Below, piece after piece: positions 2,172-56,686 of a stretch of DNA of 64,000 bases. Source of the DNA: Escherichia phage vB_EcoM_TH18; sequence record ON075799. The stretch is one strand, 5' to 3'. Each line of letters opens with the position of its first letter. The first letter of the stretch is position 1. The translations under genes and the position numbers were made by a program. The notes below the pieces were generated by a model that saw nothing but the letters and a program-made list of their open reading frames with translations, made no database searches and had not been told where the DNA came from.

Positions 2172-3926
2172 TTATGGTTGTGGTCTGCGGACAATAACAG
2201 TGTCAACAACCCCATCTTCAACACCATTAAATGTCAATTGAAGGATGGTAACTGAATTTGCTGCTGTATTAACAGTTTCACTGTTAAGGACAACATAATT
2301 AGGATCCAGAGTTATACTGTGTCCACCTGTGGCATCCTGCGTCAGATAAATCATAGCGGAGAAAGGTTGTTGTGGGTCAGGCCATGCTCCGATTGTCAGA
2401 TTCTTATTCACTGTGACATTATAAATGTTGGATGTGCCACTTGGTGTCCATGTTGCCGTTGGGTCGCCAACTTCTTCCGATTGTAAAGTTAGGAAACCCA
2501 CATTGGTGGAAGAAAGTTGTGTCTGACCGTTAACAAATAACTGATTTGTCGTTACACTATTTTGGGAAGAGAGAGATGCTACGTTAACATTCTGACCTGT
2601 TAAATCAATCGTAATACCGGATACAGTTCCCTTGACAATCAAATTGTTTACTGTCGTTGTGCCAGAAGATCTATTTAAGACTACATCACCATCAGAGACA
2701 ATTTTACCAAGGTTAGAAGTTCCGTTAACCGTCAGATCACCGTCTACAGATCCGTCGCCAGTCGCAGTGAATCCCTCCCCCAAAGTTAATAGCCCTGTGA
2801 CATTACCAGTTGTAGAGGAGAAATCTTTGAGGCTGGCTTGCCCATTAACAACAAGGTTGTTAGTAACTTCTAAGCTCTCACATGTTGTACTGTTGAGATT
2901 GGTATTACCATTGACTTGTAAATCACCACCTACAGTAACCCCTTGTGCCGTTGTTACAGAATTAGGCGAGATATCTTCCCCATTGACAGAAAAAGAAAGT
3001 CCTGTTACAGTACCTGTAATCTTTAAGTTTTCAAGCTCTGTCATCCCAGAAACTTTAAGACGAGCTTCAGAGGGGTCTTTTTTAGAGTTGCCTGTAATAT
3101 AAACATAGTCGAAGGTATTATTACCAAGACCTGTGAAAGACATTGTTGTATTGTCTGCTACTGGCACACCGTTTATAATGATGTCTGTATGTAGCTGATG
3201 TGTCTGCGCTGAGTATGCTTCAAGCCTTGTTTTTATAAACGTCGGGTTAGAATCATCACTGTAGGCAAAAGATAAACTTGAATTATCTTTTGTTAAGATA
3301 AGATTCTGGAATTTTCCTGTTTGATTGTCAGCGTTAACAGGCCCATTAAATGTTGATACACCGCCAACAGAAAGCGTATTAAGACTCGCTAAACCTGTTA
3401 CAGTAAGATCCGCGAATGTACCATTTCCACCCGCAATCCCAGCTAAAGCAGTAGCAATAGCTCTAGTAACGAATTGTGTTGTTGCTAGTGTTGTGCTGTT
3501 ACTATCTGCTGATGGTGTTGGTGCTTGAGGGTTCCCTGTAAAGATAGGACTGTCAATAGGCGCAAATAGTTGCGACATAGATTCTGAATCGTTGTATAAT
3601 CTCCAGTTAACATTGTTGATCGGGTTAGAAGGCAACACCACCGGAGAGCTTTCAGTTGCACCGGGGGCATACCACCATTGGACACCTCTTTCCCCTGTAT
3701 AAGCATACAACTGATTAAATACTGTTGCCTGTTGCCCAGCAACCCACGGCAGTGGAGGTGTTTTAAAGAATAAATTGTCAAAAAATGCTTTTCTGACTGT
3801 AGGTATCAGACTACCATCCTCTGTAACTACAGTTTCAGTTGCTGTTCCATTGACAATTTTATGAAGGCGTTCAGAATCTTCTACAACCTGATCTACCGCC
3901 TGTTCAAATTTAGTCATGTCCGCCAC
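2172..3926 (-). CDS. Tail fiber protein (584 aa) with SPIFTGNPQAPTP motif
   Basis: Motif DSPIFTGNPQAPTP is a recurrent tail-fiber motif (recognised from memory); Asn/Thr/Gly/Val-rich repetitive C-terminal part. Confidence 0.6.
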   Translation of the reverse strand: MADMTKFEQAVDQVVEDSERLHKIVNGTATETVVTEDGSLIPTVRKAFFDNLFFKTPPLPWVAGQQATVFNQLYAYTGERGVQWWYAPGATESSPVVLPSNPINNVNWRLYNDSESMSQLFAPIDSPIFTGNPQAPTPSADSNSTTLATTQFVTRAIATALAGIAGGNGTFADLTVTGLASLNTLSVGGVSTFNGPVNADNQTGKFQNLILTKDNSSLSFAYSDDSNPTFIKTRLEAYSAQTHQLHTDIIINGVPVADNTTMSFTGLGNNTFDYVYITGNSKKDPSEARLKVSGMTELENLKITGTVTGLSFSVNGEDISPNSVTTAQGVTVGGDLQVNGNTNLNSTTCESLEVTNNLVVNGQASLKDFSSTTGNVTGLLTLGEGFTATGDGSVDGDLTVNGTSNLGKIVSDGDVVLNRSSGTTTVNNLIVKGTVSGITIDLTGQNVNVASLSSQNSVTTNQLFVNGQTQLSSTNVGFLTLQSEEVGDPTATWTPSGTSNIYNVTVNKNLTIGAWPDPQQPFSAMIYLTQDATGGHSITLDPNYVVLNSETVNTAANSVTILQLTFNGVEDGVVDTVIVRRPQP

Positions 3927-22466: not shown

Positions 22467-22492
22467 AAGACCCCGAAGGGTCTTTTTATTAC
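22467..22492. terminator. Bidirectional intrinsic terminator (aagaccccgaagggtcttttt)
   Basis: Perfect GC-rich hairpin flanked by A-run and T-run, between convergent genes. Confidence 0.7.
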
Positions 22493-22746
22493 GACATAAT
22501 ACCAGCGGCTTTCAACTTGGCAAGCAAAGCATTAAAATCACTTACCAACGTAGAGACATCTGAAGCCATAGAATCTGCTTGTGTTTGTGCTTTCTTAACA
22601 CCTCCTAATGCCGATTCCGTAGCCGCTGGAAGAACATAGCTATCTGAGCCTCCAGCAACAATATCTTCGATTTTCACAGATTTTCCAGTTTTTATATCAA
22701 TAAGGCTTGATGCATATACTTTACCAGCCACACCTGTAGTTGCCAT
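22489..22746 (-). CDS. Small fiber-like protein (85 aa) sharing N-terminus with the 416-aa fiber protein
   Basis: N-terminal MATTGVAGKVYASSLIDIKTGK resembles MTATTGVGGLIYGRALVDQKTGK of 25110..26360. Confidence 0.45.
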   Translation of the reverse strand: MATTGVAGKVYASSLIDIKTGKSVKIEDIVAGGSDSYVLPAATESALGGVKKAQTQADSMASDVSTLVSDFNALLAKLKAAGIMS

Positions 22747-22756: not shown

Positions 22757-24547
22757 TTAGTTGTTTAGATAAGAATATTGCAAGAAATATTTAAATTCGT
22801 GGACTTGTTCGTCCGCTCCTGCAATAGGAATGATTCCATTAAGTCCTGATAAACCGTCTCCACGAAGAAGTTTAGTTATTACCTTCGTCTTAGGATCAAT
22901 GGTATGCGTAGGGACTGTTGGTAAAATAAGCCATACAGCCACTGTAGGTTGCCCTGATCCGACAACACTTGGATATTCTGCATAGATATCATAATCAAGA
23001 TACGTACCGTCTTCCGTACAAGGTATCTCTGTCAAACGAACATCCACCATAACATCTGTGCTGCCAGCAGGTGATCTGTTCAAATAAACTGTTGTTTTCA
23101 AATATATAGAAGACCCTGATCTTCCTGCTGCGTTTTTCGCTGAAGGTATGTCACTATAATTGAAAGAGAAATTCCCAGATGTTGCTGACAACCTCATAGT
23201 CGGCTGAGGAGAAAATGGGATATTAAAGCTCGCTTGTTGACTTGAATCATCTGTCATTGTAAAAGTTAGTGTAACCTGTTGTGCACTATCTATTTCTTTA
23301 ACAACAGCATTAACAGATTTTATTGTTTGTCCATCAGCACCTTTAGGAATACCTAAGTTAAGAACTTGTGAAGGGGAATCACCAGTTATTGATGCGGTCG
23401 CCTGTTGCCCACTTTGCAAAGAGGAAACTGTGCCGATAGATAGTGAATAGGTGGCAGAACTTCCTCCAAGGTCTACCCAAGAAACAGGGGTACTAGGGTC
23501 TGAGCCTCTAATTGTATACTTAACACTACCATCCGCGCCATAAAACAAGATCAACTTACTTGCCGTTGCTGAAGTTTTATCGTTTTGCCAATTATCTAGC
23601 CATATTATTTCAAATACGCCAGAGTTTGCTGGGGATTGTATATGGGCATAATACCTCCCCGGCATGGTCTGATTGGCAAGAGAAGCGATCTCATCAATGT
23701 TTAGCAACGATAAGGTGACACCATCACTCGCTGCCATACCGTACCCAAAACTTCCCGGTATGGCAGCAACACCAGCCGTGCGATCATGAATATTCGCTTG
23801 TTTGGCAGTTAACAAATCATACCACACTGCTGGGTCACTTAGATTGTTACCACGGATCGTATATTTCATATGACCGTCTTTACCAAAAAAGAGAACCAGC
23901 TTTGTTGCTGTCTGGCTTGTTTTGTCACCCCAGCCATTATCCAGCCAGATAATTTCTGTTATTCCTGTCATTTCCTCCGATTTTGTGGTGAAAGTATAAT
24001 ACCTTCCCGGATGTAAGTTATGGGCAGAACGCGCAACATCACCAAGACTGTTAGCAATAAGTGAAGTTCCTCCAGGATTTGTCATTCCGTAGCCGAAAGC
24101 GCCAGGCAAAGCTGCAACACCAGGTGCAGAATCATAAAGCCATTCTTGCACTTTGGTAGGAGCAACATACAACCCCTCTTCTCCTTCAGAGGTTATATTT
24201 GTTAAAGCGTTTCCTTCTTTAGGAGAAATCGGAATATTTATTTCAGGTGCTGTTACATATAATGCTCCTTGCTTCAACTCCAGCAGGTTATTTGCAGCAG
24301 GACTCACCTTAACAGCTAACCCATTATCTCCAGCTTGGAGAGCATTATTTTCATCTTCTGCCACCACAACAACACCTTTAAGAGGTGTAGCTTCTCCCCC
24401 ATCACCTAATAATTTAAGCGTGAGGGTATCTTCCGTATGCAACTTAAATTTATCTCCGAGTGTACCGCCAGAAGTATCTATACTATAACCGTTAGGTAAG
24501 ATAACTTCAGCATTTACAACTTTATCTTTATAATCCATAACTACCAC
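22757..24547 (-). CDS. Fiber-like protein with internal tandem domain duplication (596 aa)
   Basis: Two consecutive ~90-aa repeats (…PGAFGYGM…PGRYY…EIIWLDN…KYTIRG…); same domain present once in 25110..26360. Confidence 0.5.
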   Translation of the reverse strand: MVVMDYKDKVVNAEVILPNGYSIDTSGGTLGDKFKLHTEDTLTLKLLGDGGEATPLKGVVVVAEDENNALQAGDNGLAVKVSPAANNLLELKQGALYVTAPEINIPISPKEGNALTNITSEGEEGLYVAPTKVQEWLYDSAPGVAALPGAFGYGMTNPGGTSLIANSLGDVARSAHNLHPGRYYTFTTKSEEMTGITEIIWLDNGWGDKTSQTATKLVLFFGKDGHMKYTIRGNNLSDPAVWYDLLTAKQANIHDRTAGVAAIPGSFGYGMAASDGVTLSLLNIDEIASLANQTMPGRYYAHIQSPANSGVFEIIWLDNWQNDKTSATASKLILFYGADGSVKYTIRGSDPSTPVSWVDLGGSSATYSLSIGTVSSLQSGQQATASITGDSPSQVLNLGIPKGADGQTIKSVNAVVKEIDSAQQVTLTFTMTDDSSQQASFNIPFSPQPTMRLSATSGNFSFNYSDIPSAKNAAGRSGSSIYLKTTVYLNRSPAGSTDVMVDVRLTEIPCTEDGTYLDYDIYAEYPSVVGSGQPTVAVWLILPTVPTHTIDPKTKVITKLLRGDGLSGLNGIIPIAGADEQVHEFKYFLQYSYLNN

Positions 24548-25113
24548 CCAACTTTTATCCTTTGTAATTCCTCAACTGTAGAGGCTGAAAGCACTTGGTC
24601 TTTCATTTCTCGTTGCTTAGTGTATATTGAATCATTCTTAGTTGCCAACTCGGAAGACATAGCTACAACAAAATTTTCAAATTCAGAACTACTCATCTCA
24701 ACAGGTTTGTTATCAGCATCTCTCCAAATCACAGCTTGTTTAGCCGGAGATGCTTTTTGTGCTAATAATACTGGATAAATACGACATAAGGTTGCATTAT
24801 CAACATCATACCTTGCACCATTATAAGAAACAATAGTCGTAGAGCTTTCTTCCAGTTTTCTCCACTCTTTTATTTCTGATAACATCTGTTGCTTTAATGC
24901 CTCGATAAATTGAGGGTTTGCTGTATACGGGGCAATCTCTCCAAAACTACCAGATTGTAAGGAATCCCAAACTGCTTTCCCAGTTTCACTATAGTCGTTG
25001 CTAGAAGCGGTGTATGGGAGATAATCAGAAAAACCATTAAAAAGTACCAGACAATCAACGTCACCATTAAGAAGATATTGTGGAGACTTAATATCTTTAA
25101 TATCCAGCATCAT
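24541..25113 (-). CDS. Hypothetical protein (190 aa)
   Basis: ORF overlapping neighbours by a few nt. Confidence 0.4.
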   Translation of the reverse strand: MMLDIKDIKSPQYLLNGDVDCLVLFNGFSDYLPYTASSNDYSETGKAVWDSLQSGSFGEIAPYTANPQFIEALKQQMLSEIKEWRKLEESSTTIVSYNGARYDVDNATLCRIYPVLLAQKASPAKQAVIWRDADNKPVEMSSSEFENFVVAMSSELATKNDSIYTKQREMKDQVLSASTVEELQRIKVGW

Positions 25114-26360
25114 GCGATCCTCATAAAAAGACCAATATAACCTGTATCAGTACCATTTTTATTGCTTGGTGAACCGGATAAGGCTATAAACGTACCTCGC
25201 TGTGTTTCAGTACTGTGTGTAACAGAAACTGGCGTACTTTGAAATGCACCTGTTGTGGAAACCTTACTATAAAGAGTTATACAGCCTATGCGGGAACCTG
25301 GGATGGTCTGACCACGAACAAGTTTTCTGTTTGAATCAGTGTTCGAAGCGCCAAGATACACTCCCAACATCACCCCTCCAACATCAGGACTTCCCCATGT
25401 GTTTCCTACGGTTGATTGTAAATAGGAGAATTGTCCTTTTATATTTACCCAATCACCATCAGCAAAACTGGTTAGTAAGCGATAATAATACAATTCACCA
25501 TTTATGCCATAAAAATAGGCATGTTTACTATTTTTTGCTGCTTGCTCTGCATTCTCTGCTGGATATGGTGACAATACCTCAACCATACCTTTAAAAGTAA
25601 TCCCTTCAATAATACGTGTGTCACCTGAAGATAAATCTTGGTGAACAAGGTAACGACCAGGTTGTGCACTTCTCAACCAAGAAACCCATTCCTCTGGCCC
25701 ATTCTTCTCTTGAAAAACAACTTCTTTCTCGGCAGGGATAAACGCCCCAAAACCAAATGCCCCTGGTAAAGATACTACCCCATCTGTGGCATCATAGATA
25801 TCGTTTTGTACACCTTTTGTGGCAGCGGTTTTTATACCCAAGTAATCAAGAACCCCAGTTTTTGAATCTTGCCCTATGATAACTCGACCAACAGCAGAGA
25901 GATTTGCCAAAGCCATTACGTTTTTATCACTGAAATAAGCTAATTTATTTCCAGCAGTAATCAATCCTGACAAAGATGTCAGTATTTCACTCAACGGTTG
26001 TTTACCAGCAAGAGCGTTAGTGATTGTTGTTGCAAAGTTCGGGTCATCGCCTAATGCCTTCGCTAATTCATTGAGAGTATCTAATGTTTCAGGCGCTGAG
26101 TCAGCCAATTTTGCAATTAAACCCTTCACATATTCTACATTAGCTATTTCCTTTCCAATAGCATCATCCAACGGTGTTGGTGCTTGAGGGTTCCCTGTAA
26201 AGATAGGACTGTCTAAAGGAGCTTTGGATGCAATAAGATCCGTTATATCTTCTGGAATATTCCCACCACCCAACTCATCAAAATTTATTTTCTTTCCTGT
26301 TTTCTGGTCAACCAATGCACGACCATAAATTAAACCACCAACACCTGTTGTTGCTGTCAT
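25110..26360 (-). CDS. Fiber protein with SPIFTGNPQAPTP motif (416 aa)
   Basis: Same motif and identical 41-bp nucleotide stretch as tail fiber gene 2172..3926; shares C-terminal domain with 22757..24547. Confidence 0.55.
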   Translation of the reverse strand: MTATTGVGGLIYGRALVDQKTGKKINFDELGGGNIPEDITDLIASKAPLDSPIFTGNPQAPTPLDDAIGKEIANVEYVKGLIAKLADSAPETLDTLNELAKALGDDPNFATTITNALAGKQPLSEILTSLSGLITAGNKLAYFSDKNVMALANLSAVGRVIIGQDSKTGVLDYLGIKTAATKGVQNDIYDATDGVVSLPGAFGFGAFIPAEKEVVFQEKNGPEEWVSWLRSAQPGRYLVHQDLSSGDTRIIEGITFKGMVEVLSPYPAENAEQAAKNSKHAYFYGINGELYYYRLLTSFADGDWVNIKGQFSYLQSTVGNTWGSPDVGGVMLGVYLGASNTDSNRKLVRGQTIPGSRIGCITLYSKVSTTGAFQSTPVSVTHSTETQRGTFIALSGSPSNKNGTDTGYIGLFMRIA

Positions 26361-26389
26361 TGCTTAACTCCTTGAAAAAAAAAAACATT

Positions 26390-32560: not shown

Positions 32561-33575
32561 GGGAGGATTATCGAATCCTTGTATTCAAGGTTGGACGCAA
32601 CGCCAACCCCCGCACCACTACGTGCTGCTGCATGTCACCATGCAGAGTAGACTATATCACCACCCACACATAATGGGTGCTTCGCTTTTCGAACGCCATT
32701 AGCTTGCGATCTACTCCCTTGCGGGATAGTCGTTGAACTACATTACCATTCATAGTTGTTTGAGATATAGATGTAAGTTTTTCTATCTTTTATTCTTCTA
32801 ACAAGATTAAAACTAACACCCCATTTTTTAGATATCTTATTAATGCTTAGGATACCGTCTCTCAGATCTTCACATATCCCTATAACTTTGGATTCACTAA
32901 TTCTGTTGGAAGAAGGAACCATCCTGAAATTAAACTCTTTAGAAATGTCTGGGTAGACTCTCCCAGCTTTGATACTACTAACCACAGTCTGCCCAATACC
33001 AAACATCTCACTGATATCCTTTACTCTAGCACCCTGCTCAAGTAATCTGCATATCTCAAGGGCAGTGTTATCATCAAGAGGCCTGTAACTGTTTACATAA
33101 GACTTCTTAAGCCCTATTTCATGTGCGTGATGTGTGCTTTCCTTTGCAGTTGTCCACTCAAGATTCCACGCTGCGTTATTAAGTTTGTTTCCATCTAAAT
33201 GGTTCACTTGAGTTTTTGTATCAGGGCTATCATTCTCGACAAAAGCAAAAGCAATAACCCTATGGACAAGAACTTGAAACTTTTTACCATCCTCACACAA
33301 CGTTAACATTGCATAGCCAGTTTTCTTATGGACATTAGGATGTAAAAATTTGTGGGAATACAAACTATAAATTCTTCCATCATACGTCGCACAATAATGG
33401 GAATACCCTAAAAATCCTAAATTTTTCATCTCAAACATTCTCCCTACTACAGTTTCGGAAAAGTAATTATAGCTGCTGATTGCCCTTATACAAAGGGTTT
33501 CCCAGCAATTAACGAAGTTATTCGACATGCATTACTGCATGAAGCCACTATTCTTTTAATGGTTGCGGAAATGAA
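32561..33575 (-). mobile_element. Group I intron 2 carrying an HNH homing endonuclease ORF (boundaries approximate)
   Basis: Minus-strand reading shows P-like AAUUGCUGGGAAA, P5 hairpin, Q-like AAUCAGCAGC upstream of ORF, and R-like GUUCAACGACUAUC plus S-like GAUAUAGUCU downstream, giving P7 pairing GACUA/UAGUC. Confidence 0.65.
32743..33438 (-). CDS. HNH homing endonuclease (232 aa from MFEMKNLGF…)
   Basis: Typical N-terminus (KNLGFLGY…YDGRIYS) and HNH motif VNHLDGNKLNNAAWNLEW; SD AGGGAGA upstream of Met; lies inside intron between P/Q and R/S elements. Confidence 0.75.
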   Translation of the reverse strand: MFEMKNLGFLGYSHYCATYDGRIYSLYSHKFLHPNVHKKTGYAMLTLCEDGKKFQVLVHRVIAFAFVENDSPDTKTQVNHLDGNKLNNAAWNLEWTTAKESTHHAHEIGLKKSYVNSYRPLDDNTALEICRLLEQGARVKDISEMFGIGQTVVSSIKAGRVYPDISKEFNFRMVPSSNRISESKVIGICEDLRDGILSINKISKKWGVSFNLVRRIKDRKTYIYISNNYEW

Positions 33576-33914
33576 GGAAAATGAAAGCGGTTTAGGCTTT
33601 CTTTTCTCATCCTTGCCATCCCAATACTTTTCAATTAATTCTTGCTCTGAGTCACCCCAGATAAATTCTCCGTCACGTCTTATAAACCATCTAATCACCC
33701 CATCTCGTTCAGGTATAGGATATCCCTCATCGTCTAAATACCAAGAAATCAACTCCTTAATCTTATGATCTGGATCAGGGTTACAAGAGATAACCATCCT
33801 GCTCGGATATTTAGAGTTTGAACGTAGACGAGATATCAGATAATCTATCTGTGACCATGTGAATTGTGTTCCCTCATCAAAGCCGATGAAGGTATACTGC
33901 AACTTATTGTCCCC
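33572..33914 (-). CDS. terL: Terminase large subunit, exon 2 (Walker B region; boundaries approximate)
   Basis: Hydrophobic stretch ending in FIGFDEGT (Walker B-like), then ISCNP (coupling-motif-like); no ATG start; flanked by intron cores. Confidence 0.6.
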
Positions 33915-34141
33915 TCAGTTCGCTACACTGAGGCGGTGTGCCAAGACACCCGCCACATGTTTCCATGTGGAACAGACTATATCTTCCATCCTTGGCGTGC
34001 CGTTTGGATCACCAATCGCTTGTGATTCTACTCTCCTACACTCATCGGAGATAGTCGTTACACCCAGATTTTATATTTCCATATTCTGTGGCACGGTATT
34101 TTCCCATAGGGAGTTCCACCGTTATAGGCACGAAGGGCAAG
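33903..34141 (-). mobile_element. Group I intron 1, ORF-less (boundaries approximate)
   Basis: Minus-strand reading contains R-like GUGUAACGACUAUC and S-like AAGAUAUAGUCU (near-consensus), several hairpins, no ORF; separates Walker A and Walker B coding segments. Confidence 0.6.
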
Positions 34142-35512
34142 CTATTCACCCTGATGATCTAATTTGTTATTCTCATACTCCATGTGTCTCCACAACACCT
34201 TTGCCCCAGATGGGAAAATTGCTTCCAGAGCTTTCTCCCTGAACTTCGGCTTCCATTCCTTATCGAGTTGCAAATAAATACTTTTTGCTGTATCAAAAAG
34301 CCCACCTGCACCTGTCAATTGAGGTGTTGTCCTACGAAACATTATACATGCTGTCTGCGGGTCATCGACATAAGCAAGCGGCATCAATTGTAGGAGATAT
34401 GATTTTCCACTATTCCCAGTGACAACCACACAATCTTCTAGTCTGGTAACAAAGAAACCTGTTTGTGTTACAAAGCAGTATTTAAACCCATCCGTAGGTA
34501 TAAACTCTTTAAACTCAGCTTTTCTGTCTTTATTAGCCAGTGACCTTAATCCTTTTCCTCTAGCCATAATATTAACAGTATAACTGTCCTTTCCACTTCT
34601 TGTATCATGGTTTATGGTGGTATTATAACCAAGAGAAGATCCTACAAACTGAACAAAATCAGCGTTCATCTTATGGACAGTAAAATATCTACCTGTAAAG
34701 CTGTTATGTGTTTTACCGCCATATGGCTTACAAAAAGAACCATCCCAATGAAAAATCTCATCAAGTATTATCTCCAGTTGTTCATTTGAACACTGATAGT
34801 ATTTCTCTGTAAATTTTTTATCAGGATATTTAGGCCATACAATAACCTCGTACTGTTCCCCAGTGGTATATCTTTCACTGGGTTTTGATCCTCTATCTTC
34901 ATATCTTAATCCAAACTTTTTACAAAGTTCGATTAAGCGGTCATATTTACGCTTTTTAGCAAAGCGCATCTGTGTATAATTATCTTTCCCTTCTTTAACA
35001 ACTCTCCCATCAGCCATGACAGCAACCTGAAGCCGTAATTCCCCTTCTGTCATGTCTATCCCAGGACCATCATAGTTAAATGTAGTTATGAACTTACCTG
35101 TCCAACCTTTTTTAACAGAGTTGTTATGTCTTTCTGCCACTTCAGAAAAAGAAAGTGTTCTTGGCTGTGATTTATAGTCTGGTTTATAAATCACAGTATG
35201 TTCGTCAGATAGCTCTTGACAAATGCCATTACCTTCTATTCTTGTAAGTTTTTCGCAAGGGAGTTTAACAAACTCTAAAGGGGGGATAAATTTAGCCTCC
35301 CCAGTGGCTTTGTCATATTGCAGAATGTCCTGCCCTGACCATTCTGATATCTTAATCCAGCCAGATGGTGTCAACACCTCGTGGTCTTTAGACAAACACC
35401 CGGCGGCCCCACCAATTATTAGAATTTGGGCTTTACTCTCCAAAATCATTTTTTGCTTAGGACTGGCAGGTCCAAATACTTTACTCAAAAGACCTCCATA
35501 TTTTCTATTCAT
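34142..35512 (-). CDS. terL: Terminase large subunit, exon 1 (N-terminal ATPase segment including in-frame intein)
   Basis: N-extein ends IIGGAAG; C-extein resumes SGKSYLL, restoring Walker A GGAAGSGKS. Confidence 0.7.
   Translation of the reverse strand: MNRKYGGLLSKVFGPASPKQKMILESKAQILIIGGAAGCLSKDHEVLTPSGWIKISEWSGQDILQYDKATGEAKFIPPLEFVKLPCEKLTRIEGNGICQELSDEHTVIYKPDYKSQPRTLSFSEVAERHNNSVKKGWTGKFITTFNYDGPGIDMTEGELRLQVAVMADGRVVKEGKDNYTQMRFAKKRKYDRLIELCKKFGLRYEDRGSKPSERYTTGEQYEVIVWPKYPDKKFTEKYYQCSNEQLEIILDEIFHWDGSFCKPYGGKTHNSFTGRYFTVHKMNADFVQFVGSSLGYNTTINHDTRSGKDSYTVNIMARGKGLRSLANKDRKAEFKEFIPTDGFKYCFVTQTGFFVTRLEDCVVVTGNSGKSYLLQLMPLAYVDDPQTACIMFRRTTPQLTGAGGLFDTAKSIYLQLDKEWKPKFREKALEAIFPSGAKVLWRHMEYENNKLDHQGE
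34412..35398 (-). mobile_element. Intein (about 329 aa) inserted in the terminase Walker A P-loop
   Basis: Begins CLSKDHEVLTPSGWIKISEW (intein block A-like), ends …VVTGN followed by Ser; size suggests nested endonuclease, with weak LAGLIDADG-like segments (AVMADGRV, ILDEIFHWDGS). Confidence 0.65.
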
Positions 35513-37899: not shown

Positions 37900-37975
37900 T
37901 GGTGTGACGGACAGGATTCGAACCTGTGACCACCTAGTCTTCAGCAAGGCACTCTACCAACTGAGTTACCGTCAC
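37900..37975 (-). tRNA. tRNA-Phe (anticodon GAA)
   Basis: Hand-folded cloverleaf: acceptor GUGACGG/CCGUCAC, T-arm ACAGG-UUCGAAU-CCUGU, anticodon loop CUGAAGA, CCA encoded. Confidence 0.75.
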
Positions 37976-37980
37976 ATAAT

Positions 37981-38057
37981 TGGTGGGCGATGAGGGACTC
38001 GAACCCCCAAAATTCAGGTTCTAAGCCTGACATGTATACCAATTCCATCAATCGCCC
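37981..38057 (-). tRNA. tRNA with anticodon UAG (Leu by anticodon) but class I architecture
   Basis: Acceptor GGGCGAU/AUCGCCC, anticodon arm UCAGG-CUUAGAA-CCUGA, 5-nt variable loop, A73, CCA encoded. Confidence 0.6.
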
Positions 38058-38305
38058 ATCTATATTAACAGTTATGGTTTTCCACGATACACAGAAATAG
38101 TTTTCCCATTAGCATTGATAACATAAGCGGTCTGATCCTCAGACAAAAACACTTTTTGATCAATGCCGGAAATAGCTATAGACTTTTGATGAGCACAATA
38201 CCCAACAATTTTCCCACAAAAAATTTGTTCATCATTTGGAGAGACGACTTTAACTGTTAACATGGTATCCTCTGTACATTTCTGCTTTGATATGTTTATG
38301 TTTGT

Positions 38306-38383
38306 TGGTCTGTCCGGTTGGATTTGAACCAACGACCTGGTCATCCCAAGTGACCCGCGCTACCCAAGCTGCGCTACGGACAG
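38306..38383 (-). tRNA. tRNA-Pro (anticodon UGG)
   Basis: Acceptor CUGUCCG/CGGACAG, anticodon loop CUUGGGA, T-arm GUUGG-UUCAAAU-CCAAC. Confidence 0.75.
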
Positions 38384-38467
38384 AGAAATGTAGATTTTAA
38401 TTGTCCCAGAATCTACTAACTGGTATCGCTGGCTAGGTGATATCTGTGACTTGATTAAGTCAAGAAT

Positions 38468-38559
38468 TGGCGGTTCCTGAAGGATTCGAACCTTCGGTGG
38501 GGAGATTCATTCCCAACGGCTTAACAGGCCGTCACCATCGACCACTCGGTCAAAGAACC
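38468..38559 (-). tRNA. Class II (long variable arm) tRNA with anticodon GUU (Asn by anticodon)
   Basis: 92 nt; acceptor GGUUCUU/AGGAACC, D-arm with CCGAGUGG, anticodon arm ACGGC-CUGUUAA-GCCGU, 20-nt variable arm, T-arm GAAGG-UUCGAAU-CCUUC, G73, CCA. Confidence 0.6.
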
Positions 38560-38568
38560 TGAATATTT

Positions 38569-38645
38569 TGGTGGATCTGGTTGGGGTCGAACCAACAATC
38601 TCTCGATTAAAAGTCGAGTGACTTAAACCATTTGGCTACAAATCC
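38569..38645 (-). tRNA. tRNA-Lys (anticodon UUU)
   Basis: Acceptor GGAUUUG/CAGAUCC, anticodon arm CUCGA-CUUUUAA-UCGAG. Confidence 0.75.
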
Positions 38646-38878
38646 GTTAAATTATCTTTAAAATAGCTAATTACTCGCACATAATTAGCTATACGCAACA
38701 ACTCTCCAAGGAGAGCACACTAATGATCGATTACGATTATATGACTAAATTTAGACCATCATAAGTGTTTGGCTTACGCCAGTAAAGAGCGGACTGCTCT
38801 GGGGTATCGGTAAGATGGTTGCAGCCATCTACCGAAAAATCACACCAAGCAACTAAACAAGCTACATTAAAGATAACT

Positions 38879-38967
38879 TGGAGGAGGCTGACAGAATCGA
38901 ACTGTCACCATATCTCTACAGCGGGACTGGGTTCAAACCAGCTTGTGCACCATGCACCCCAGCCTCC
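38879..38967 (-). tRNA. tRNA-Ser (anticodon UGA), class II
   Basis: Acceptor GGAGGCU/AGCCUCC, anticodon arm GCUGG-UUUGAAC-CCAGU, long variable arm, T-arm GACAG-UUCGAUU-CUGUC. Confidence 0.7.
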
Positions 38968-39038
38968 AAAGATAGCCTCTGCCGAGGATATACACCCAAC
39001 AAAGGAGGCGCTCAGGTCAGAAGAAATCTGAGCCTTAA

Positions 39039-39132
39039 TGGAGGAAGATGCCAGACTTGAACTGGCACACCCATTTCTGGGTTACTATCTCCTTAGCAGG
39101 GAGATCCCTTACCAAATTAGGGTTAATCTTCC
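39039..39132 (-). tRNA. tRNA-Ser (anticodon GCU), class II
   Basis: Acceptor GGAAGAU/AUCUUCC, anticodon arm UCUCC-CUGCUAA-GGAGA, long variable arm, T-arm GCCAG-UUCAAGU-CUGGC. Confidence 0.7.
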
Positions 39133-39153
39133 AATACCTTAGTAATTAAAAAC

Positions 39154-39243
39154 TGGTGGAGAAGGAGAGAATCGAACTCTCAAGCCGTTTTACCAGTCAG
39201 CACATTTCCAATGTGCTTTCGTCGCCAATCGATTTGCTTCTCC
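39154..39243 (-). tRNA. tRNA-Ser (anticodon GGA), class II
   Basis: Acceptor GGAGAAG/CUUCUCC, anticodon arm GCACA-UUGGAAA-UGUGC, T-arm GAGAG-UUCGAUU-CUCUC; D-arm irregular. Confidence 0.65.
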
Positions 39244-39252
39244 GTTTTAACT

Positions 39253-39328
39253 TGGCAGGGGATGGTTGATTCGAACAACCGATCACGGGGTCAAAGCCCG
39301 TTGCATTAGGCCACTATGCTAATCCCCT
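39253..39328 (-). tRNA. tRNA-Gln (anticodon UUG)
   Basis: Acceptor AGGGGAU/AUCCCCU, D-stem GCAU/AUGC, anticodon arm ACGGG-CUUUGAC-CCCGU. Confidence 0.75.
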
Positions 39329-39331
39329 TTT

Positions 39332-39409
39332 GCACGAGAGTGAGGAATAGAACCTCTTAGTCACTGGTTTTGGAGGCCAGCCTTCACCCAGTGAAGTTAC
39401 GCTACTCTC
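39332..39409 (-). tRNA. tRNA-like remnant (probable pseudo-tRNA)
   Basis: Acceptor-like GAGAGU/ACUCUC and T-arm-like GAGG-UUCUAUU-CCUC, but no canonical anticodon arm. Confidence 0.2.
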
Positions 39410-39417
39410 ATTAAAAA

Positions 39418-39975
39418 CTATTTTCGAAAAGGACTTATGAAAAATGCCAACATCACTCTCTCTCTTGAAAAAGCTCTGTCTTCAGGAACCACACTCTTCA
39501 GTTTCCAACCGACATAAATTCGCCAGTAAAATTGTTTTCCAAACAATCTAAAAGACGGGACAAACGCGAATACACCCCACGCATTGTCATTCCACATCAA
39601 CAAATAGCCTTGTTGGTTATCCTCCACATCAGAGCTTACATGGAGGTTTCCTTTCCACTTTGTCACAGATGTGATTTCACGTCCAAGTACGTGATAGGAG
39701 AAATTGTAGGCTTTATTTCTCCACAACCAAGCAACTCGTTGTAGGTAAACACCAAAACTTCCTATTTTACGGACTTCTTCCCATCTCTCTATGTGTCCTC
39801 TATCACCGTCTATAGGATTATCATATGTCTCCATCCACCTGAAAATATAAGGCAGATGCCCTGTCTTCTCATTATAGAACGGAACAACAAAAGGAGCCAG
39901 AATAACACAGAGAACCGACATAACTGGGTCAAGAGGTGCTAACAGGATCCACGATAAATATTTTAAGTATCTCAT
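39418..39975 (-). CDS. Hypothetical membrane-associated protein (185 aa) embedded in tRNA cluster
   Basis: Hydrophobic N-terminal helix; Trp-rich. Confidence 0.35.
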   Translation of the reverse strand: MRYLKYLSWILLAPLDPVMSVLCVILAPFVVPFYNEKTGHLPYIFRWMETYDNPIDGDRGHIERWEEVRKIGSFGVYLQRVAWLWRNKAYNFSYHVLGREITSVTKWKGNLHVSSDVEDNQQGYLLMWNDNAWGVFAFVPSFRLFGKQFYWRIYVGWKLKSVVPEDRAFSRERVMLAFFISPFRK

Positions 39976-40327
39976 GCAGGATCAAGCCTAGATATAATGT
40001 ACTGGTTTAAATCTGAATATGGGAAGATACTTTCAAAGATAACCTGTTTAAATCTGAAGCCGCACAAACCGAAAAGTACCTTCTGACACTCACCAAAAGA
40101 GCAATCTTTACCAACTTTTATCACAACCGTATCGGCAATCTGCACACTTTCTATCTCTTTAGATTCATGATGCCGTACTATGATTACTTTAGAAACCATC
40201 ATACTCGTCCATATTAAAGCCTTCTACTAAAGATAGTAGATGTCTAGGGTTGGACCGCAAACGCAACCCCATGGAATTTGTTACGGTCTTCAGTTGACCC
40301 AAGCGGATTTCATTGACATCTTTTAAC

Positions 40328-40402
40328 TGGAGCATCCAGAGGGTATCGAACCCTCGACTTCAGCTTGGAAGGCTGTAGTTTTCCCAATTAAACTATGGAT
40401 GC
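40328..40402 (-). tRNA. tRNA-Gly (anticodon UCC)
   Basis: Acceptor GCAUCCA/UGGAUGC, anticodon loop CUUCCAA, T-arm GAGGG-UUCGAUA-CCCUC. Confidence 0.7.
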
Positions 40403-40407
40403 ATATT

Positions 40408-40483
40408 TGGTGGGAGTGGTAGGCTCTGCCCCTACGTCCTCTCGATTATCGGTCGAGCGATCTACTAACTGATCTACACTCCC
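40408..40483 (-). tRNA. tRNA-shaped gene, anticodon GAU (Ile by anticodon), with non-canonical D-, anticodon- and T-loops
   Basis: All four stems perfectly paired, but T-loop is GGCAGAG (no UUC), D-loop AGUUAGUA lacks GG, anticodon loop CCGAUAA has C33. Confidence 0.55.
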
Positions 40484-40551
40484 AAACTGTACTGGCCCAA
40501 CAACCACGATTGGAGGGTATCGTCACACATCAAAGCCAGTACAGTTTTAGT

Positions 40552-40641
40552 TGGTGTGCCGTGATAGAGTCGAACTACCCGAGTCCCTTTCGAGACAGGA
40601 GATTTACAGTCTCCCCCGCTACCCCTACGGTCTAACGACAC
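40552..40641 (-). tRNA. tRNA-Tyr (anticodon GUA), class II
   Basis: Acceptor GUGUCGU/ACGGCAC, anticodon arm GGAGA-CUGUAAA-UCUCC, long variable arm, A73. Confidence 0.7.
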
Positions 40642-40642
40642 A

Positions 40643-40990
40643 TTAACCTTGTTTGAATTGAACAATATCCGTCGAGAACGGTTTAGCTGCCTTAATAGGT
40701 GCTTTTTCTGAGTTATCTTTTTCGAGTAACTCTTCGTTTTCCTCATCAAAGTAATCAGAAAGCATCTGCTCACCTTTCTCAATAACATAACGAGCTATAT
40801 TTTCTCTGATATTGTCTTTTGTATTCACATTCTTCATCAAATCCCTAAGAACCTGATGAGCTTCAGGAATCATTGCAATCAGATTCGTTTTTAAATCTAG
40901 GATATTTTTCTCTAACTGAATTGCATTAGATTCCTCTTTCAGAGGACGACCTTTTCCTCTTCTACGTTTTGTAAGCTGCTTAGTAGCCAT
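40643..40990 (-). CDS. Hypothetical basic/acidic protein (115 aa from MATKQL…)
   Basis: ORF trimmed to Met downstream of a consensus sigma70 promoter; longer listed ORF would overlap tRNA-Cys. Confidence 0.4.
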   Translation of the reverse strand: MATKQLTKRRRGKGRPLKEESNAIQLEKNILDLKTNLIAMIPEAHQVLRDLMKNVNTKDNIRENIARYVIEKGEQMLSDYFDEENEELLEKDNSEKAPIKAAKPFSTDIVQFKQG

Positions 40991-41009
40991 TTTAAAACCC
41001 CACTTAATG

Positions 41010-41038
41010 ATATTATCAAATAAAAACATATCTGTCAA
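41010..41038 (-). promoter_or_regulatory. Consensus sigma70-like promoter on minus strand (TTGACA, 17-nt spacer, TAATAT)
   Basis: Minus-strand reading TTGACAgatatgtttttatttgaTAATAT, about 20 nt upstream of ATG at 40990. Confidence 0.55.
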
Positions 41039-41075
41039 GTGGTATTTTAACATATTTACCAAGAAATTGAAAGTT

Positions 41076-41152
41076 TGGAGCACGGTGTCGGACTTGAACC
41101 GACATATATCTGTTTTGCAGACAGATCCGTAACCAAATTCCAGCAACCGTGC
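41076..41152 (-). tRNA. tRNA-Cys (anticodon GCA)
   Basis: Acceptor GCACGGU/ACCGUGC, anticodon arm UCUGU-CUGCAAA-ACAGA, T-arm GUCGG-UUCAAGU-CCGAC. Confidence 0.7.
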
Positions 41153-41228
41153 AATAAGTACCCCAGGTAGAGAACCTATAGAGTGGGTCTTACGAGCCGC
41201 GCTGACGATTCTCAAGTTGGGGTTAATC

Positions 41229-41305
41229 TGGTCGAGGAGACAGGATTCGAACCTGTGACCTACGGCTTAGAAGGCCGCTGCTCTATCCAACTGAGCTACA
41301 CCCCG
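41229..41305 (-). tRNA. tRNA-Arg (anticodon UCU)
   Basis: D-arm GCUC-AGUUGGAUA-GAGC, anticodon arm GCGGC-CUUCUAA-GCCGU, T-arm ACAGG-UUCGAAU-CCUGU; acceptor has one U-U mismatch. Confidence 0.7.
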
Positions 41306-41505
41306 AAAATAAGAATGCTTTATAGTGTATGGTTACTCAACCTCACTCCAACTTCCACAGTTGGTGCTCTACGAGCATGACTACGTTTGAAATCAACGTT
41401 GCGCACCGATAGCTTTCTCACGCATTGTATGCCTCATTCCCAACAAATGCTGATCAGACATTTATATCGAATAATATAAGCTAATACACTATAAAACAAA
41501 CTTGT

Positions 41506-41602
41506 GGCTGGGTGATGGAATCGAACCACCTATGTATTCAACGGCTTCCCCGTCTATTTTCAGGATTATAAATCCTCGCCCTTGCCAAAGGGCTTACCCA
41601 GC
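41506..41602 (-). tRNA. Atypical 97-nt tRNA-like gene (possible anticodon UAU) with about 30-nt extra segment
   Basis: Canonical acceptor GCUGGGU/ACCCAGC, D-arm GCCC-UUUGGCAA-GGGC, T-arm GGUGG-UUCGAUU-CCAUC; anticodon region is a 4-bp stem with loop UUUAUAA followed by 30 extra nt; CCA not encoded. Confidence 0.35.
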
Positions 41603-41604
41603 AT

Positions 41605-41679
41605 TGGTGCTCGCAGCAGGTTTCGAACCTGCAACCCCCTGCTTACAAGGCAGGTGCTCTACCGTTGAGCTATACGAGC
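41605..41679 (-). tRNA. tRNA-Thr (anticodon UGU)
   Basis: Acceptor GCUCGUA/UGCGAGC, anticodon arm CCUGC-CUUGUAA-GCAGG, T-arm GCAGG-UUCGAAA-CCUGC. Confidence 0.75.
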
Positions 41680-42044
41680 AATAAGACATTGCTTCCGATT
41701 AACAGCCTTGAGGCTTTACAGACCATATCTTGTGAGCCATAACCTGTGCCAAGGATTTCAGATGATAAACGAAATTTTATCTTTCAAGAGTCAACTTTCA
41801 AGTTTCATCTTTTACATTTAACCATTGACCTTTATTGTATGAACTTTTACTTAGTGGAAACAACAAGGCATCTTCGTGTGCCTCGCTGCATCTATGTCCT
41901 GTATTATCCTCATACATATACGATACATGGTGGGGGATATTTAACCTCCAACCCCCAGGAGGCAAGATGATGTAAACTTCGTTAATCAAAAGCAATGTTT
42001 TAAATTTCAAAACAAAGGAACGATAATGATATTATCAGAGCCTT

Positions 42045-42692
42045 TTAGAGAGAGTGCTCAATCTCAATTTCTGTCTTAGCGTTTGACTCAGACAACGCAA
42101 AATCAACGTTAGACAAGAAATCTTCAATCTCTTCTTCAAGAGAACGAATCTTAGAAGCCAGTTCAAGAGGATCCACAACCGATGGTGTGTTCATCATTCG
42201 AATAGGAGCTTCCACAGTCTTAATCTGCTCTGCATCTGGCGCTTTATCACGTTGGATATATGGCGCTCTTGCATTTTCAAGTTTATCTTCCAGAGATTTT
42301 TCTTCTTTTGCCAGAAGAAGCTGTGCAGAAGCACGCTGTGCACAAAGTTTGTTTAACAACTCTTGTTTAAAGCAAATCGTCCGTTTGCGTTCGATTGCCT
42401 CAGCAACTGTCATAGACACATTACCAATTTTGACAATTGTCTCAGCATTAGACTTAACAATTTTTGCTTTCAGTTCATCACGCACTGCCAAGAGGTCTTG
42501 CAGACTTTGATAGTCGTTGATCGCAGATTTCTTAAAATCATCAACAGAGCCGATATAACCCGGAATCTTACAATTATTCTCAGTTCCTTTTGCAATCTTA
42601 ATACAATCAAGATTGTAGATACGCTTATTGATCTTATCTTCAATTTTAGAGATAGAAGCAAGTGCACGAGTTACGGAAATCTTAGTAGACAT
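42045..42692 (-). CDS. Hypothetical protein (215 aa)
   Basis: ORF with coiled-coil-like charged regions. Confidence 0.4.
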   Translation of the reverse strand: MSTKISVTRALASISKIEDKINKRIYNLDCIKIAKGTENNCKIPGYIGSVDDFKKSAINDYQSLQDLLAVRDELKAKIVKSNAETIVKIGNVSMTVAEAIERKRTICFKQELLNKLCAQRASAQLLLAKEEKSLEDKLENARAPYIQRDKAPDAEQIKTVEAPIRMMNTPSVVDPLELASKIRSLEEEIEDFLSNVDFALSESNAKTEIEIEHSL

Positions 42693-43033
42693 GCGATCTC
42701 TCCTATGTAAATCAGCTTTGATAAAGTAACTATCCAGAAAAACAAAAACTATGTCAAGAAAAATTTTAATCTTTTACAGCATCTTTTATAGAATCACAAA
42801 GATCTTGAACAACATCAGATGTCGGTGACAAAATCATCTCGTCGGCTGCTGCTATAGCATCTGATGCTAAATCAACAAACGGAGTTGTTACCGCAGAAGT
42901 CACTTCAACAGCCGTTATTGTTACTTCGCTTGCAATCTTAAGCAAAGATCCTATCATAATCTCAACCCTCCTGAATATCCGTGATTCCCTTTATTTAACG
43001 ACGCTGGCTCACGGTGGCACTCTCGTCAATAAA

Positions 43034-43357
43034 CTATTTTTTAGTTTTCTTACCGTTTTCTACAGAAATGCTTGTTTTCTGTTTCGCTTCTCGTTCGCGC
43101 TTTGTTTTCCCAGTGCGAATACGATATGAAGCAGAAATAACTTCACCACCAATGACACGAGACACAGATTCGTAATACATTTCAGTATTACCGTCTTCAT
43201 CTTTGCGTTTTTTCAGAACTGCTACAGTTTGCGTTTTACCACCAAGGCGCACATCGTGCGGTGCAGAATGTGTCTGCGTGGATTTTGATCCAAACTGAAA
43301 AGGTTGCTTTATCGCCTCGATAGCTGACACCTTTTTAGCAGACTGTTTCTTAGCCAT
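43034..43357 (-). CDS. Hypothetical basic protein (about 107 aa from MAKKQSAKK…)
   Basis: Lys/Arg-rich small protein. Confidence 0.4.
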   Translation of the reverse strand: MAKKQSAKKVSAIEAIKQPFQFGSKSTQTHSAPHDVRLGGKTQTVAVLKKRKDEDGNTEMYYESVSRVIGGEVISASYRIRTGKTKREREAKQKTSISVENGKKTKK

Positions 43358-43409
43358 TAAGTTTTCTCCTCCGAAAACAATAAACATAGTTTATTTCGTG
43401 TGCCACATT

Positions 43410-43486
43410 TGGTGGCCCCTGCTGGACTTGAACCAGCGACCAAGCGATTATGAGTCACCTGCTCTATCCAACTGAGCTAAGGGGCC
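43410..43486 (-). tRNA. tRNA-Met (anticodon CAU; elongator-type or lysidine-modified Ile2 not distinguishable)
   Basis: Acceptor GGCCCCU/AGGGGCC with G1-C72, anticodon loop CUCAUAA, T-arm GCUGG-UUCAAGU-CCAGC. Confidence 0.75.
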
Positions 43487-50895: not shown

Positions 50896-51158
50896 TATTT
50901 TATCACTGATATTTGTTTTCCCTGTGATATTTTTGTCACAGGGAAAGTTTCAATAGTGGATATTTTCTTGATACTTTAAATTCCTACCAGAAATTTAAAT
51001 TCTGTAAATTTAGAAAACTATTACTTATAGGCGTTTCGACACAATTTTGTTATGAAAGCCTTGTTTTTATATAAAAACCTGTTTTAGCATGGGTGGTAGG
51101 ATCACACTCCATACTACCTTTATTCCTACAGATGAGCATCTCCATGTTCGAAAACTCG

Positions 51159-51340
51159 GTTCTCGATCGAAAATTCATTTTCCAGATCGTATTTGCTCCT
51201 TACGGAGAAAATTTTTTAGGGCTACAAGTTTCAGTTCTCGATCGGTTTTTCGATTTCAAAATCGTATTTGTTTTTTCTTGCGAAATTTTTCGCACGCTCA
51301 GTTCTCGATCGAGTTTTCAAAATCGAAATCGTATTTGCTC
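51159..51340. repeat. Three tandem direct repeats (about 67-75 bp), each containing GTTCTCGATCG and AATCGTATTTG
   Basis: Repeat units begin at 51159, 51234 and 51301; each includes a GATC site; no ORF. Confidence 0.8.
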
Positions 51341-51742
51341 TATAGTGCGAAAAAATTTTTATGGGTATCATAATTCTATCACACACTTAAACGCAAAGCA
51401 ACATAAAAATTTTTGTTGAATGATAATCATTCTCATTTGCAGAATGACAGGTAGGATCAGTGTCTTATCCTCCCCCGTTGACCATCGTCGCCGTAGTTTG
51501 AAGTTTATAGCCGTTCTCGGCTTATCTCTTTGTTAGAGATAGATTACCATAATTGATAAAGAAAGCAAGCGTTAATTGTAATCTTTACGTTTCTTTACAA
51601 ATTTATTTTAGACAAACTACCGGCGATCGACCTTCCAACCAGCGCCCTGGTATGTTAGCCCCGCCTTTACGCCGTGGGGATGGCGTTGCCTCTTCTGTAT
51701 GTTAGGCATTATAAGCCCAATCCCTGGGCTTGTCAAACATTT

Positions 51743-53174: not shown

Positions 53175-53531
53175 ATGGCAATCCAGGCAATCATGTTAGA
53201 ACTTACAGATTTCCGTAATACTGTAAAAAATTTATCTAAGAAACAGGTTGACAATATCATCAACGGATACCGTAGCAAGATTAAAGATCTTCCGCTTAAA
53301 CGCGATCAACATGCGGCTAATATGATGTTTAATGCTATGATTAAAAAGATGATCCAATGTGATCTTTCTCTGGCTTATGAATACGCTGGCGATCTCTTTG
53401 CAACGTATAACAAGCCCGTGCTAGGTATGAGCACCACGGAAGAATTACACGCCTTAAATCTGCGGCAAGATGCTTGGGATAATATGCACCGCGTTATGGT
53501 GTGGGTAGAAAGCGGTAAAATTTATCAATAA
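53175..53531 (+). CDS. Early hypothetical protein (118 aa)
   Basis: SD GAGAGGT upstream; promoter-like TTGCAA…TATACT upstream. Confidence 0.5.
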   Translation: MAIQAIMLELTDFRNTVKNLSKKQVDNIINGYRSKIKDLPLKRDQHAANMMFNAMIKKMIQCDLSLAYEYAGDLFATYNKPVLGMSTTEELHALNLRQDAWDNMHRVMVWVESGKIYQ

Positions 53532-53537
53532 AAGTAG

Positions 53538-53574
53538 TTGACTTTTAGTTATGCCGTGATAGAATACACGGCAT
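53538..53574 (+). promoter_or_regulatory. Promoter (TTGACT, 16-17 nt, TAGAAT) with -10 inside 8-bp inverted repeat ATGCCGTG/CACGGCAT
   Basis: Consensus -35 and -10 with the -10 hexamer in the loop of a perfect palindrome; duplicated at 57772-57808. Confidence 0.5.
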
Positions 53575-53607
53575 AGATAAGAGAAACTACTTATCAGAGT
53601 TTAAAAG

Positions 53608-56308: not shown

Positions 56309-56596
56309 ATGTTTGAAGTTTTCGCGGGTATGTGTTTTTATACAGCTTTGGCAATTCGTCAGTGTGATGATTATATCGTTGAATCATACGATGATCAGCT
56401 GACTTGCGAAATAGTCGCTAATGACTACGGCAAAAAAGATCGCTGGATTAATCCGGCTTGCATACCATCCCCAGAGGTAGAAGCCATGCCGGAAGGGGAA
56501 GAGGTATCAGATCCAGTTGTGGCGGTATCCTCCTTTTTCGTTGACAACCTGGACGCCCAAGAATTGATCGACATGTATGTAAAAAATCAAAAATAA
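56309..56596 (+). CDS. Early hypothetical acidic protein (95 aa from MFEVFAG…)
   Basis: SD AAGAGGTGA upstream of this Met. Confidence 0.45.
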   Translation: MFEVFAGMCFYTALAIRQCDDYIVESYDDQLTCEIVANDYGKKDRWINPACIPSPEVEAMPEGEEVSDPVVAVSSFFVDNLDAQELIDMYVKNQK

Positions 56597-56599
56597 CGC

Positions 56600-56635
56600 T
56601 TGACGTTGATTTGTGCCGCTTTATAATAGGCGGCA
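56600..56635 (+). promoter_or_regulatory. Promoter (TTGACG, 16-17 nt, TATAAT) with -10 inside inverted repeat TGCCGC/GCGGCA
   Basis: Consensus hexamers; palindrome arms flank the -10. Confidence 0.5.
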
Positions 56636-56686
56636 TAGGCAAGCGAAAGCGGATATAAATCTTAAACAAGTTAAGAGAGGTAAATC

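Follow-up and report, generated by a model that had tools for sequence, protein, structure and literature searches.

Perfect 41-bp identity between two otherwise non-homologous fiber genes of an Avunavirus phage, a probable footprint of short-tract gene conversion

Two fiber genes on the minus strand of the DNA analyzed here, a stretch of 64,000 nucleotides (nt) from Escherichia phage vB_EcoM_TH18 (sequence record ON075799; hereafter, the window), have a sequence of 41 base pairs (bp), GGTGTTGGTGCTTGAGGGTTCCCTGTAAAGATAGGACTGTC, in common. The window represents the genus Avunavirus of the Vequintavirinae: it is 100% identical to the Escherichia phages 18-1-2, 19-1-2 and 24-2-1 and 90–94% identical to Av-05. 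The two genes, called A and B below, and the parts of the repeated sequence (the 41-mer) are located as follows:

2172..3926, minus strand: fiber gene A, 584 amino acids (aa); a baseplate-attached long tail fiber (LTF), orthologue of the phiTE LTF and of PVP-SE1 gp41.
3514..3554, minus strand (coding): A copy of the 41-mer, the putative donor; codes for D125-T137 plus two bases of P138, DSPIFTGNPQAPT-P.
25110..26360, minus strand: fiber gene B, 416 aa; stf-type, between the capsid and neck genes; phrog_2636.
26173..26213, minus strand (coding): B copy of the 41-mer, the putative recipient; B nt 148-188, coding for D50-T62 plus two bases of P63.
26202..26213, minus strand: 5' part of the B copy, GACAGTCCTATC; B nt 148-159; the part putatively converted in the latest event, ESPS becoming DSPI.
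26173..26201, minus strand: 3' part of the B copy, TTTACAGGGAACCCTCAAGCACCAACACC; B nt 160-188; A-like in the majority of B alleles.

An exact search finds the 41-mer exactly twice in the window, both times on the plus strand, so that the copies are direct repeats, 22.6 kilobases (kb) apart. No third copy is present in the window at up to three mismatches, and the sequence did not occur in any of 100 dinucleotide-preserving shuffles. The similarity reaches 47 of 50 positions (3514-3563 against 26173-26222) and ends there; blastn at word size 7 detected nothing between the two genes beyond the 41-mer region, and the alignable part of the two proteins amounts to 37 residues with 57% identity. 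Both copies are read in the same frame, giving DSPIFTGNPQAPT and the first two bases of the following proline codon. Just outside the 41-mer, the residues that A and B still have in common are written with different codons (GCG/GCT, CCA/CCG, GCA/GCT, GTT/GTG). The sequence-only reading of this DNA had claimed a perfect identity in two fiber genes with flanks that diverge immediately; the exact search and the two minus-strand open reading frames confirm the first claim, and the differing flanking codons the second.

The identity exceeds what the encoded peptide would require. With the codon usage of the window itself, the probability that 13 of 13 codons coincide for a given peptide is 4.7e-6, and several of these codons are minority choices (AGT 0.19, GGG 0.18, ATC 0.26, GAC 0.30). 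An unrelated contig of IMG/VR (L011) encodes LDSPIFTGNPQAPTPS with eight synonymous differences, and the motifs of the two 'b' repeats in the S protein of phage P1 vary freely at synonymous sites; hence, the peptide does not dictate the DNA. The 41-bp identity of A and B is far beyond chance.

The B genes of relatives are more informative than the window alone. Alleles from five further contigs (L-numbers denote contigs) and from Av-05 were compared; A and B could be paired within one genome only for the window, Av-05 and ERZ27258095 (L016 and L023). Exact look-ups of the major capsid protein and of the 85-aa head-fiber protein of the window, made to obtain more B alleles, returned very close relatives only. 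In order of increasing identity to the A copy, the B alleles are:

L018: 25/41, 16 differences; keeps the stf-type ESPSFTGTPTTPTP, TPTTPTP.
Av-05: 34/41, 7 differences; 27/29 in the 3' part.
L020: 35/41, 6 differences; the pattern of L017 and L019 with AAA for AAC; 28/29 in the 3' part.
L017 and L019: 36/41, 5 differences, all in the first 12 nt (GAAAGCCCTTCA, ESPS); 29/29 in the 3' part.
Window, L016 and L034: 41/41; the B protein of L016 is 8% different from that of the window.

The B 41-mer of the window recurs identically in L016, L031, L033 and L034. L017, L019, L020 and Av-05 carry GAAAGCCCTTCA over the 5' 12 nt, followed by 29 nt that are A-like or nearly so. Among 110 stf-type homologues, the peptide GNPQAPT is found only in seven Avunavirus B proteins, the others having GTPTTPT, GTPTAPT or similar. 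Six of eight B lineages have ESPSF, among them those most distant from the window (47–61% overall identity to its B protein). At every site of the 41-mer where the B gene of the window departs from the non-identical alleles, it has the base of A. This includes all seven differences from the Av-05 allele, although a single difference separates the two alleles over the 137 nt from nt 175 to 311. Even the third base of one serine codon follows the genome: A and B both have T there in the window, and both have C in Av-05.

Gene A behaves otherwise. Across 11 independently sampled Avunavirus A genes, its 41-mer varies at zero to two positions; the variants include ATT in L024, L029 and L030, and AGC in L027 and Av-05. 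In other genera of the Vequintavirinae, where gene B is missing, SP[IV][FL]TGNPQAPTP is the norm among the A orthologues. An invariant, family-typical A next to a graded series of B alleles designates A as the donor and B as the recipient; as read from these alleles, the direction of transfer is from A to B. Three features of an ectopic gene conversion are found here: non-homologous sequence bounds the tract on both sides, the synonymous identity is well over the expectation from the peptide, and orthologues of the recipient occur in the pre-conversion state while the donor is invariant. Of the two origins offered by the sequence-only reading, a recent conversion event is well supported by these observations. 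The ordinary synonymous divergence in relatives, which had been named as a finding that would speak against this inference, is seen in gene B (Av-05, L018) and is not seen in gene A.

The two proteins belong to different fiber families. Gene A matches phrog_4549 (E 1e-220) and, in four stretches covering residues 8-570, the 'putative tail fiber protein' of PDB entries 9cuy_g and 9mjn (E 5.1e-87). Precomputed Pfam assignments give PF26208 and PF26209, and the protein is a member of the phiTE LTF family. Full-length orthologues are found all over the Vequintavirinae: PVP-SE1 gp41, GAP31, 4MG, and Klebsiella and Proteus phages. In the phiTE structure (PMC11972413), residues 14-171 of the long tail fiber were modelled on the baseplate; they comprise a helical bundle, a globular domain, a short beta-helix and a second, short helical bundle. 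The A motif aligns with APLNSPNFVGNPRVPTP (phiTE residues 131-147, approximately), inside this proximal N-terminal part, where it may form the transition from the beta-helix to the helical bundle. Gene A lacks an extended homology to the Stf/S/H module: only some 40–50 residues around the motif are shared with those PHROG families.

The homology of B, on the contrary, extends well beyond the motif. Its residues 34-183 match lambda Stf, P2 H and the final portion of the constant region of P1 S at about 50% identity (47–54%), with E values down to 1e-36. Full-length orthologues of B are confined to Avunavirus-like contigs, and residues 39-416 recur in prophage fibers behind the N-terminal domain of lambdoid Stf proteins (PF08400 and PF03406) or a P2-type tail-collar domain (PF12571). 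The module opened by the motif, hence, follows at least three types of N-terminus: PF08400, PF12571 and short ones. The common pattern is SPx[FL]xGxPxxPT, then IA[NT]xx[FY]V about ten residues further on; it reads DSPIFTGNPQAPTPSADSNSTTLATTQFV in A and DSPIFTGNPQAPTPLDDAIGKEIANVEYV in B, and the P1 b1 and b2 elements have the same pattern. An assignment of the motif to Phage_fiber_2 (PF03406) was rejected, as neither A nor B matches this family at E <= 0.1. In the homologue P0019, PF03406 covers residues 189-228, directly upstream of the motif (231-242).

Some observations bear on the location of fiber B in the particle. The only solved homologue is PDB 9d93 ('tail collar fibers, gp4'), which matches aa 64-148; a literature search with this PDB code gave nothing relevant. 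The N-terminus of B (aa 1-33, MTATTGVGGLIYGRALVDQKTGKKINFDELGGG) resembles that of an 85-aa protein encoded at 22489-22746, which itself matches the C-terminal domain of Phage_head_fibr in Pfam (45% over 31 aa, E 1e-7). In a MAFFT alignment, this N-terminus was also placed against the last Phage_fiber_2 repeat of lambdoid Stf proteins. From the likeness of the N-terminus, the place of the gene between capsid and neck genes and the 'tail collar fiber' name of 9d93, B may be a neck or head fiber instead of a baseplate fiber. Directly downstream of B lies the following gene:

24541..25113: DUF4376 protein.

The favored explanation, with an estimated probability of about 0.8, is that the 41-bp identity is the footprint of a short-tract, non-reciprocal ectopic gene conversion between fiber genes that are otherwise non-homologous. 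The starting point would be the short structural motif SPxFTGxPxxPT, contained in both proteins. At least two conversions from A to B are proposed. The older one would have overwritten about 29 nt (26173-26201), turning the stf-type GTPTTPTP into the A-type GNPQAPTP. The later one would have lengthened the tract in the 5' direction by about 12 nt (26202-26213), changing ESPS to DSPI and producing the perfect 41-mer; it may be placed after the Av-05-type alleles had split off, in the common ancestor of the alleles of the window type and the L016 type. The genes for neck, sheath, tube, tape measure and baseplate lie between the two copies. As a crossover between direct repeats 22.6 kb apart would delete these essential genes, only non-crossover products would survive. 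The route could be relaxed homologous recombination or template switching during replication, in either case seeded by the prior partial identity. Phage recombinases are known to act on short and diverged sequences, and segments of around 100 bp within genes, stf genes included, are often exchanged (PMC3945230). A selective value of homogenizing the two genes may be supposed.

Several points weigh against this explanation. Before the last event, the homology would have been tiny, a perfect run of 29 nt on one side and microhomology on the other, and the mechanism is, hence, not obvious. The 5' end of the tract is not clean either: the B codon directly upstream, TTA, differs both from the ATT of A and from the ATA of the remaining B alleles. 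For the older event, the polarity rests on a single unconverted lineage, L018, together with the peptide motifs of outgroups, and L018 could have re-acquired an stf-type segment. The independent B lineages are a handful.

An origin by chance, codon bias or faulty assembly is hardly credible. The peptide motif is common in fibers and some nucleotide likeness is expected, the unconverted L018 allele already reaching 25 of 41 positions, but the 41-mer is absent from the shuffles and the codon-level probability is about 5e-6, minority codons included. An artefact of assembly is ruled out by at least four independent assemblies that reproduce the repeat and by contig ends that lie inside it. The repeat is found again in the independent assemblies ERZ27258095 (L016 and L023) and GCA_002972075.1 (L034). 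In the draft E. coli assembly GCA_002972255.1, gene B is divided over the end of contig JZNW01000021.1 (L032) and the start of JZNW01000009.1 (L035). These ends overlap by 27 nt (CTATCTTTACAGGGAACCCTCAAGCAC) within the 41-mer, at about 26181-26207 of the window, as a true repeat characteristically does in a de Bruijn graph; the repeat, thus, breaks short-read assemblies within gene B, a point of relevance to the engineering and annotation of Avunavirus fibers. It is also very improbable that both genes hold a functional element at the nucleotide level, such as a regulatory, RNA-structural or protein-binding site. Nothing positive speaks for it besides the identity itself. Rfam has no family at either 41-mer site, the tRNA cluster being its only find in the window, and the mRNA-sense folds are no more stable than those of shuffled sequences (z of -1.0 and -0.04). 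The sequence is absent elsewhere, and close relatives that lack the identity in B are viable, which largely refutes the idea. Quite improbable, too, is an ancestral identity, in which B would have arisen as a fusion of an stf-type gene with a motif segment taken from A, the original state being kept in the window while other lineages diverged from it. All B alleles except L018 agree with A at 27 or more of the 29 nucleotides of the 3' part, which fits one old origin of this part. The 5' 12 nt, however, read GAAAGCCCTTCA (ESPS) in four lineages with 47–92% protein identity to the B of the window, from which ESPS is taken as the ancestral state; an ancestral identity would need this sequence to arise in several lineages. 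Av-05 would further need six to seven substitutions in 41 bp at a per-lineage divergence of about 5% (Poisson P of about 0.005–0.02), and a perfect synonymous identity would have to outlast the 5–10% divergence of the rest of B. Finally, the TTG codon (Leu64) common to the window, L016 and Av-05 suggests that the 41/41 alleles were derived within the clade of ESPS alleles.

The remaining alternative gives the identity a function of its own: the DNA of the motif would be held identical as an anchor for swaps of fiber modules, within one genome or with co-infecting relatives, and not as a by-product. The sequence-only reading had proposed such an anchor for the exchange of receptor-binding C-terminal modules, and the idea is unlikely, with some observations in its favor. 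The module common to B and the Stf/S/H-type fibers opens with the motif, its first conserved element, and each tandem 'b' element of P1 S starts with the same motif. Mosaic boundaries among the B alleles adjoin it: between the window and L016, the identity rises from 68% (nt 91-147) to 100% from about nt 133, and the L017-type alleles fall to about 80% directly after nt 188. Conversion has apparently recurred at least twice. Against this, the expected fiber chimeras with breakpoints at the motif did not appear, as no A/B chimera is present among the 240 best homologues of A or B. The distal, presumably receptor-binding, swaps in the B genes of L019 and L020 break about 180 nt downstream of the motif, after AGKQPL, and P0009, in which B is fused with a neighboring fiber, recombined in a different repeated domain. 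Searches for the exact 41-mer gave no match in IMG/VR, in 5,426 complete E. coli genomes (megablast) or in phage records beyond the 18-1-2/Av-05 group (blastn); the sequence, therefore, offers no nucleotide anchor for exchange outside the genus Avunavirus. The nucleotides at the junction are, likewise, not shared with other phages or prophages, as they would have to be in a crossover site used between phages, and a fully degenerate back-translation of DSPIFTGNPQAPTP matches only gene A of Av-05 and one unrelated contig. Relatives without the identity (Av-05, L017-L020) are viable, and a crossover of the direct copies would remove 22.6 kb of essential tail genes. Nor do the copies delimit an invertible segment of the Cin/Gin/Min type, being direct, 22.6 kb apart and spanning the tail and baseplate genes. 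A variant of the idea, which is doubtful as well, treats the motif DNA as a renewable 'linker' of Avunavirus, in which repeated A-to-B conversion would hold two (formerly three) fiber genes identical at their shaft-proximal joint, as a functional feature and no neutral scar. If true, the fibers possibly must fit a common partner or chaperone; alternatively, there could be second-order selection for a standing 41-bp homology, by which co-infecting relatives reshuffle modules.

Next to the conversion, the comparison of the genomes gave some further observations. Relative to Av-05 (NC_025830.1), the window shows an inversion of about 72 kb (Av-05 41740-114107; junction in the window at 26378-26383). 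Head genes, gene B and tail genes follow each other directly on a single strand of the window, whereas Av-05 has the head genes apart from gene B and the tail genes, and on the opposite strand. Contigs L016-L020 and L034 share the arrangement of the window and, as they are independent, make the Av-05 reference the odd one out, by misassembly or by a real inversion. The adjacent fiber gene C (22757..24547, 596 aa) has a central part (23389-23737) that is replaced with respect to Av-05, 348 nt against 534 nt. A third copy of the peptide motif, missing from the window, is located in this segment of Av-05 and L018 (LYNPNFSGTPTVPTPSDSASGTQIAN, identical to the A 41-mer at 25/41 positions). A repeated internal domain is, further, common to fibers B and C, with about 30% identity over some 110 aa.

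Elsewhere in the window, the gene of the terminase large subunit (32645-35066) is seemingly split into Terminase_6N and Terminase_6C parts. HNH or endonuclease VII reading frames lie between the parts and differ among relatives (L016, L017, L019 and L020, upstream of the portal gene). The Av-05 annotation lists three 'terminase large subunit' pieces, and the window aligns patchily to Av-05 there. Thirteen tRNA genes are clustered on the minus strand at 37903-43486. An element of 82 nt is present three times (53506-53587, 56568-56649 and 57740-57821), with TTGAC(T/G)...TA(G/T)AAT boxes followed by a GC-rich hairpin (GCCGTG...CACGGC); these are probably repeated early promoters or regulatory modules. 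Three degenerate tandem units of about 70 nt, 65–73% identical and with the cores CAGTTCTCGATCG and ATCGTATTTG, occupy 51147-51359. The records OK136180, OK181858 and OK181861 and the contigs of L016, L017, L019, L024 and L034 end at about 77–82 kb, while Av-05 measures 121 kb and two contigs about 134 kb. Such ends in many independent assemblies suggest that assembly repeatedly breaks at another place in the genome and that the deposited records of the 18-1-2 type are incomplete.

The A-to-B conversion can be set beside known cases of fiber mosaicism. In the accounts of Haggard-Ljungquist (1992) and Sandmeier (1992, 1994), as cited in PMC3945230, P1 S, P2 H, Mu S and lambda Stf share a mosaic tail-fiber region, and P1 S has repeated 'b' elements. 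Fiber B resembles this group, with its roughly 50% identity over aa 34-183 and a module placed behind varied N-terminal domains in different phages; the 'b' elements of P1 each open with the motif, as KAPIESPSLTGTPTAPT and KAPLASPALTGVPTAPT. In those systems, as far as the cited accounts describe them, related modules pass between phages over hundreds of bp, whereas here a tract of 25–41 bp would have been copied from one gene to another of the same genome, the two having nothing else in common. The b1 and b2 motifs of P1 also differ freely at synonymous sites, unlike the two 41-mers, and the cixR site of P1 lies about 120 codons downstream of the motif. A likeness also exists with De Paepe et al. 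2014 (PMC3945230), where very short or imperfect homology in fiber genes can be recombined during lytic growth. Those exchanges, however, concern temperate phages with Rad52-like recombinases and their prophage partners, in contrast to an intragenomic event in a virulent phage of the Vequintavirinae. Fiber A, for its part, aligns over its full length with the phiTE long tail fiber (E 5e-87), although phiTE is a Pectobacterium phage of another genus with a differing motif sequence.

The T-even phages offer another comparison. Short conserved motifs in their distal tail-fiber genes reportedly act as crossover points that reshuffle adhesin segments, as Tetart and colleagues are said to have found in 1998; the motifs are said to flank hypervariable adhesin segments, whose swaps alter the host range. 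The tract of the window, on the contrary, is at the shaft's proximal end, and the receptor-binding segments have stayed in place. The case belongs to the known mosaicism of tail fibers at conserved motifs and to relaxed phage recombination, with no new mechanism or kind of element. Particular to it are the very short tract, its intragenomic and apparently directional transfer between non-homologous genes, and the survival of intermediate alleles. Donor, recipient, polarity and intermediate alleles of a conversion tract of about 25–41 bp are all readable from public sequences. They would indicate that the homology of one conserved structural motif, about 13 residues long, suffices for repeated transfer within the genome of a virulent myovirus, and that such conversions can alter amino acids at the fiber joint (ESPS to DSPI, TPTT to NPQA).

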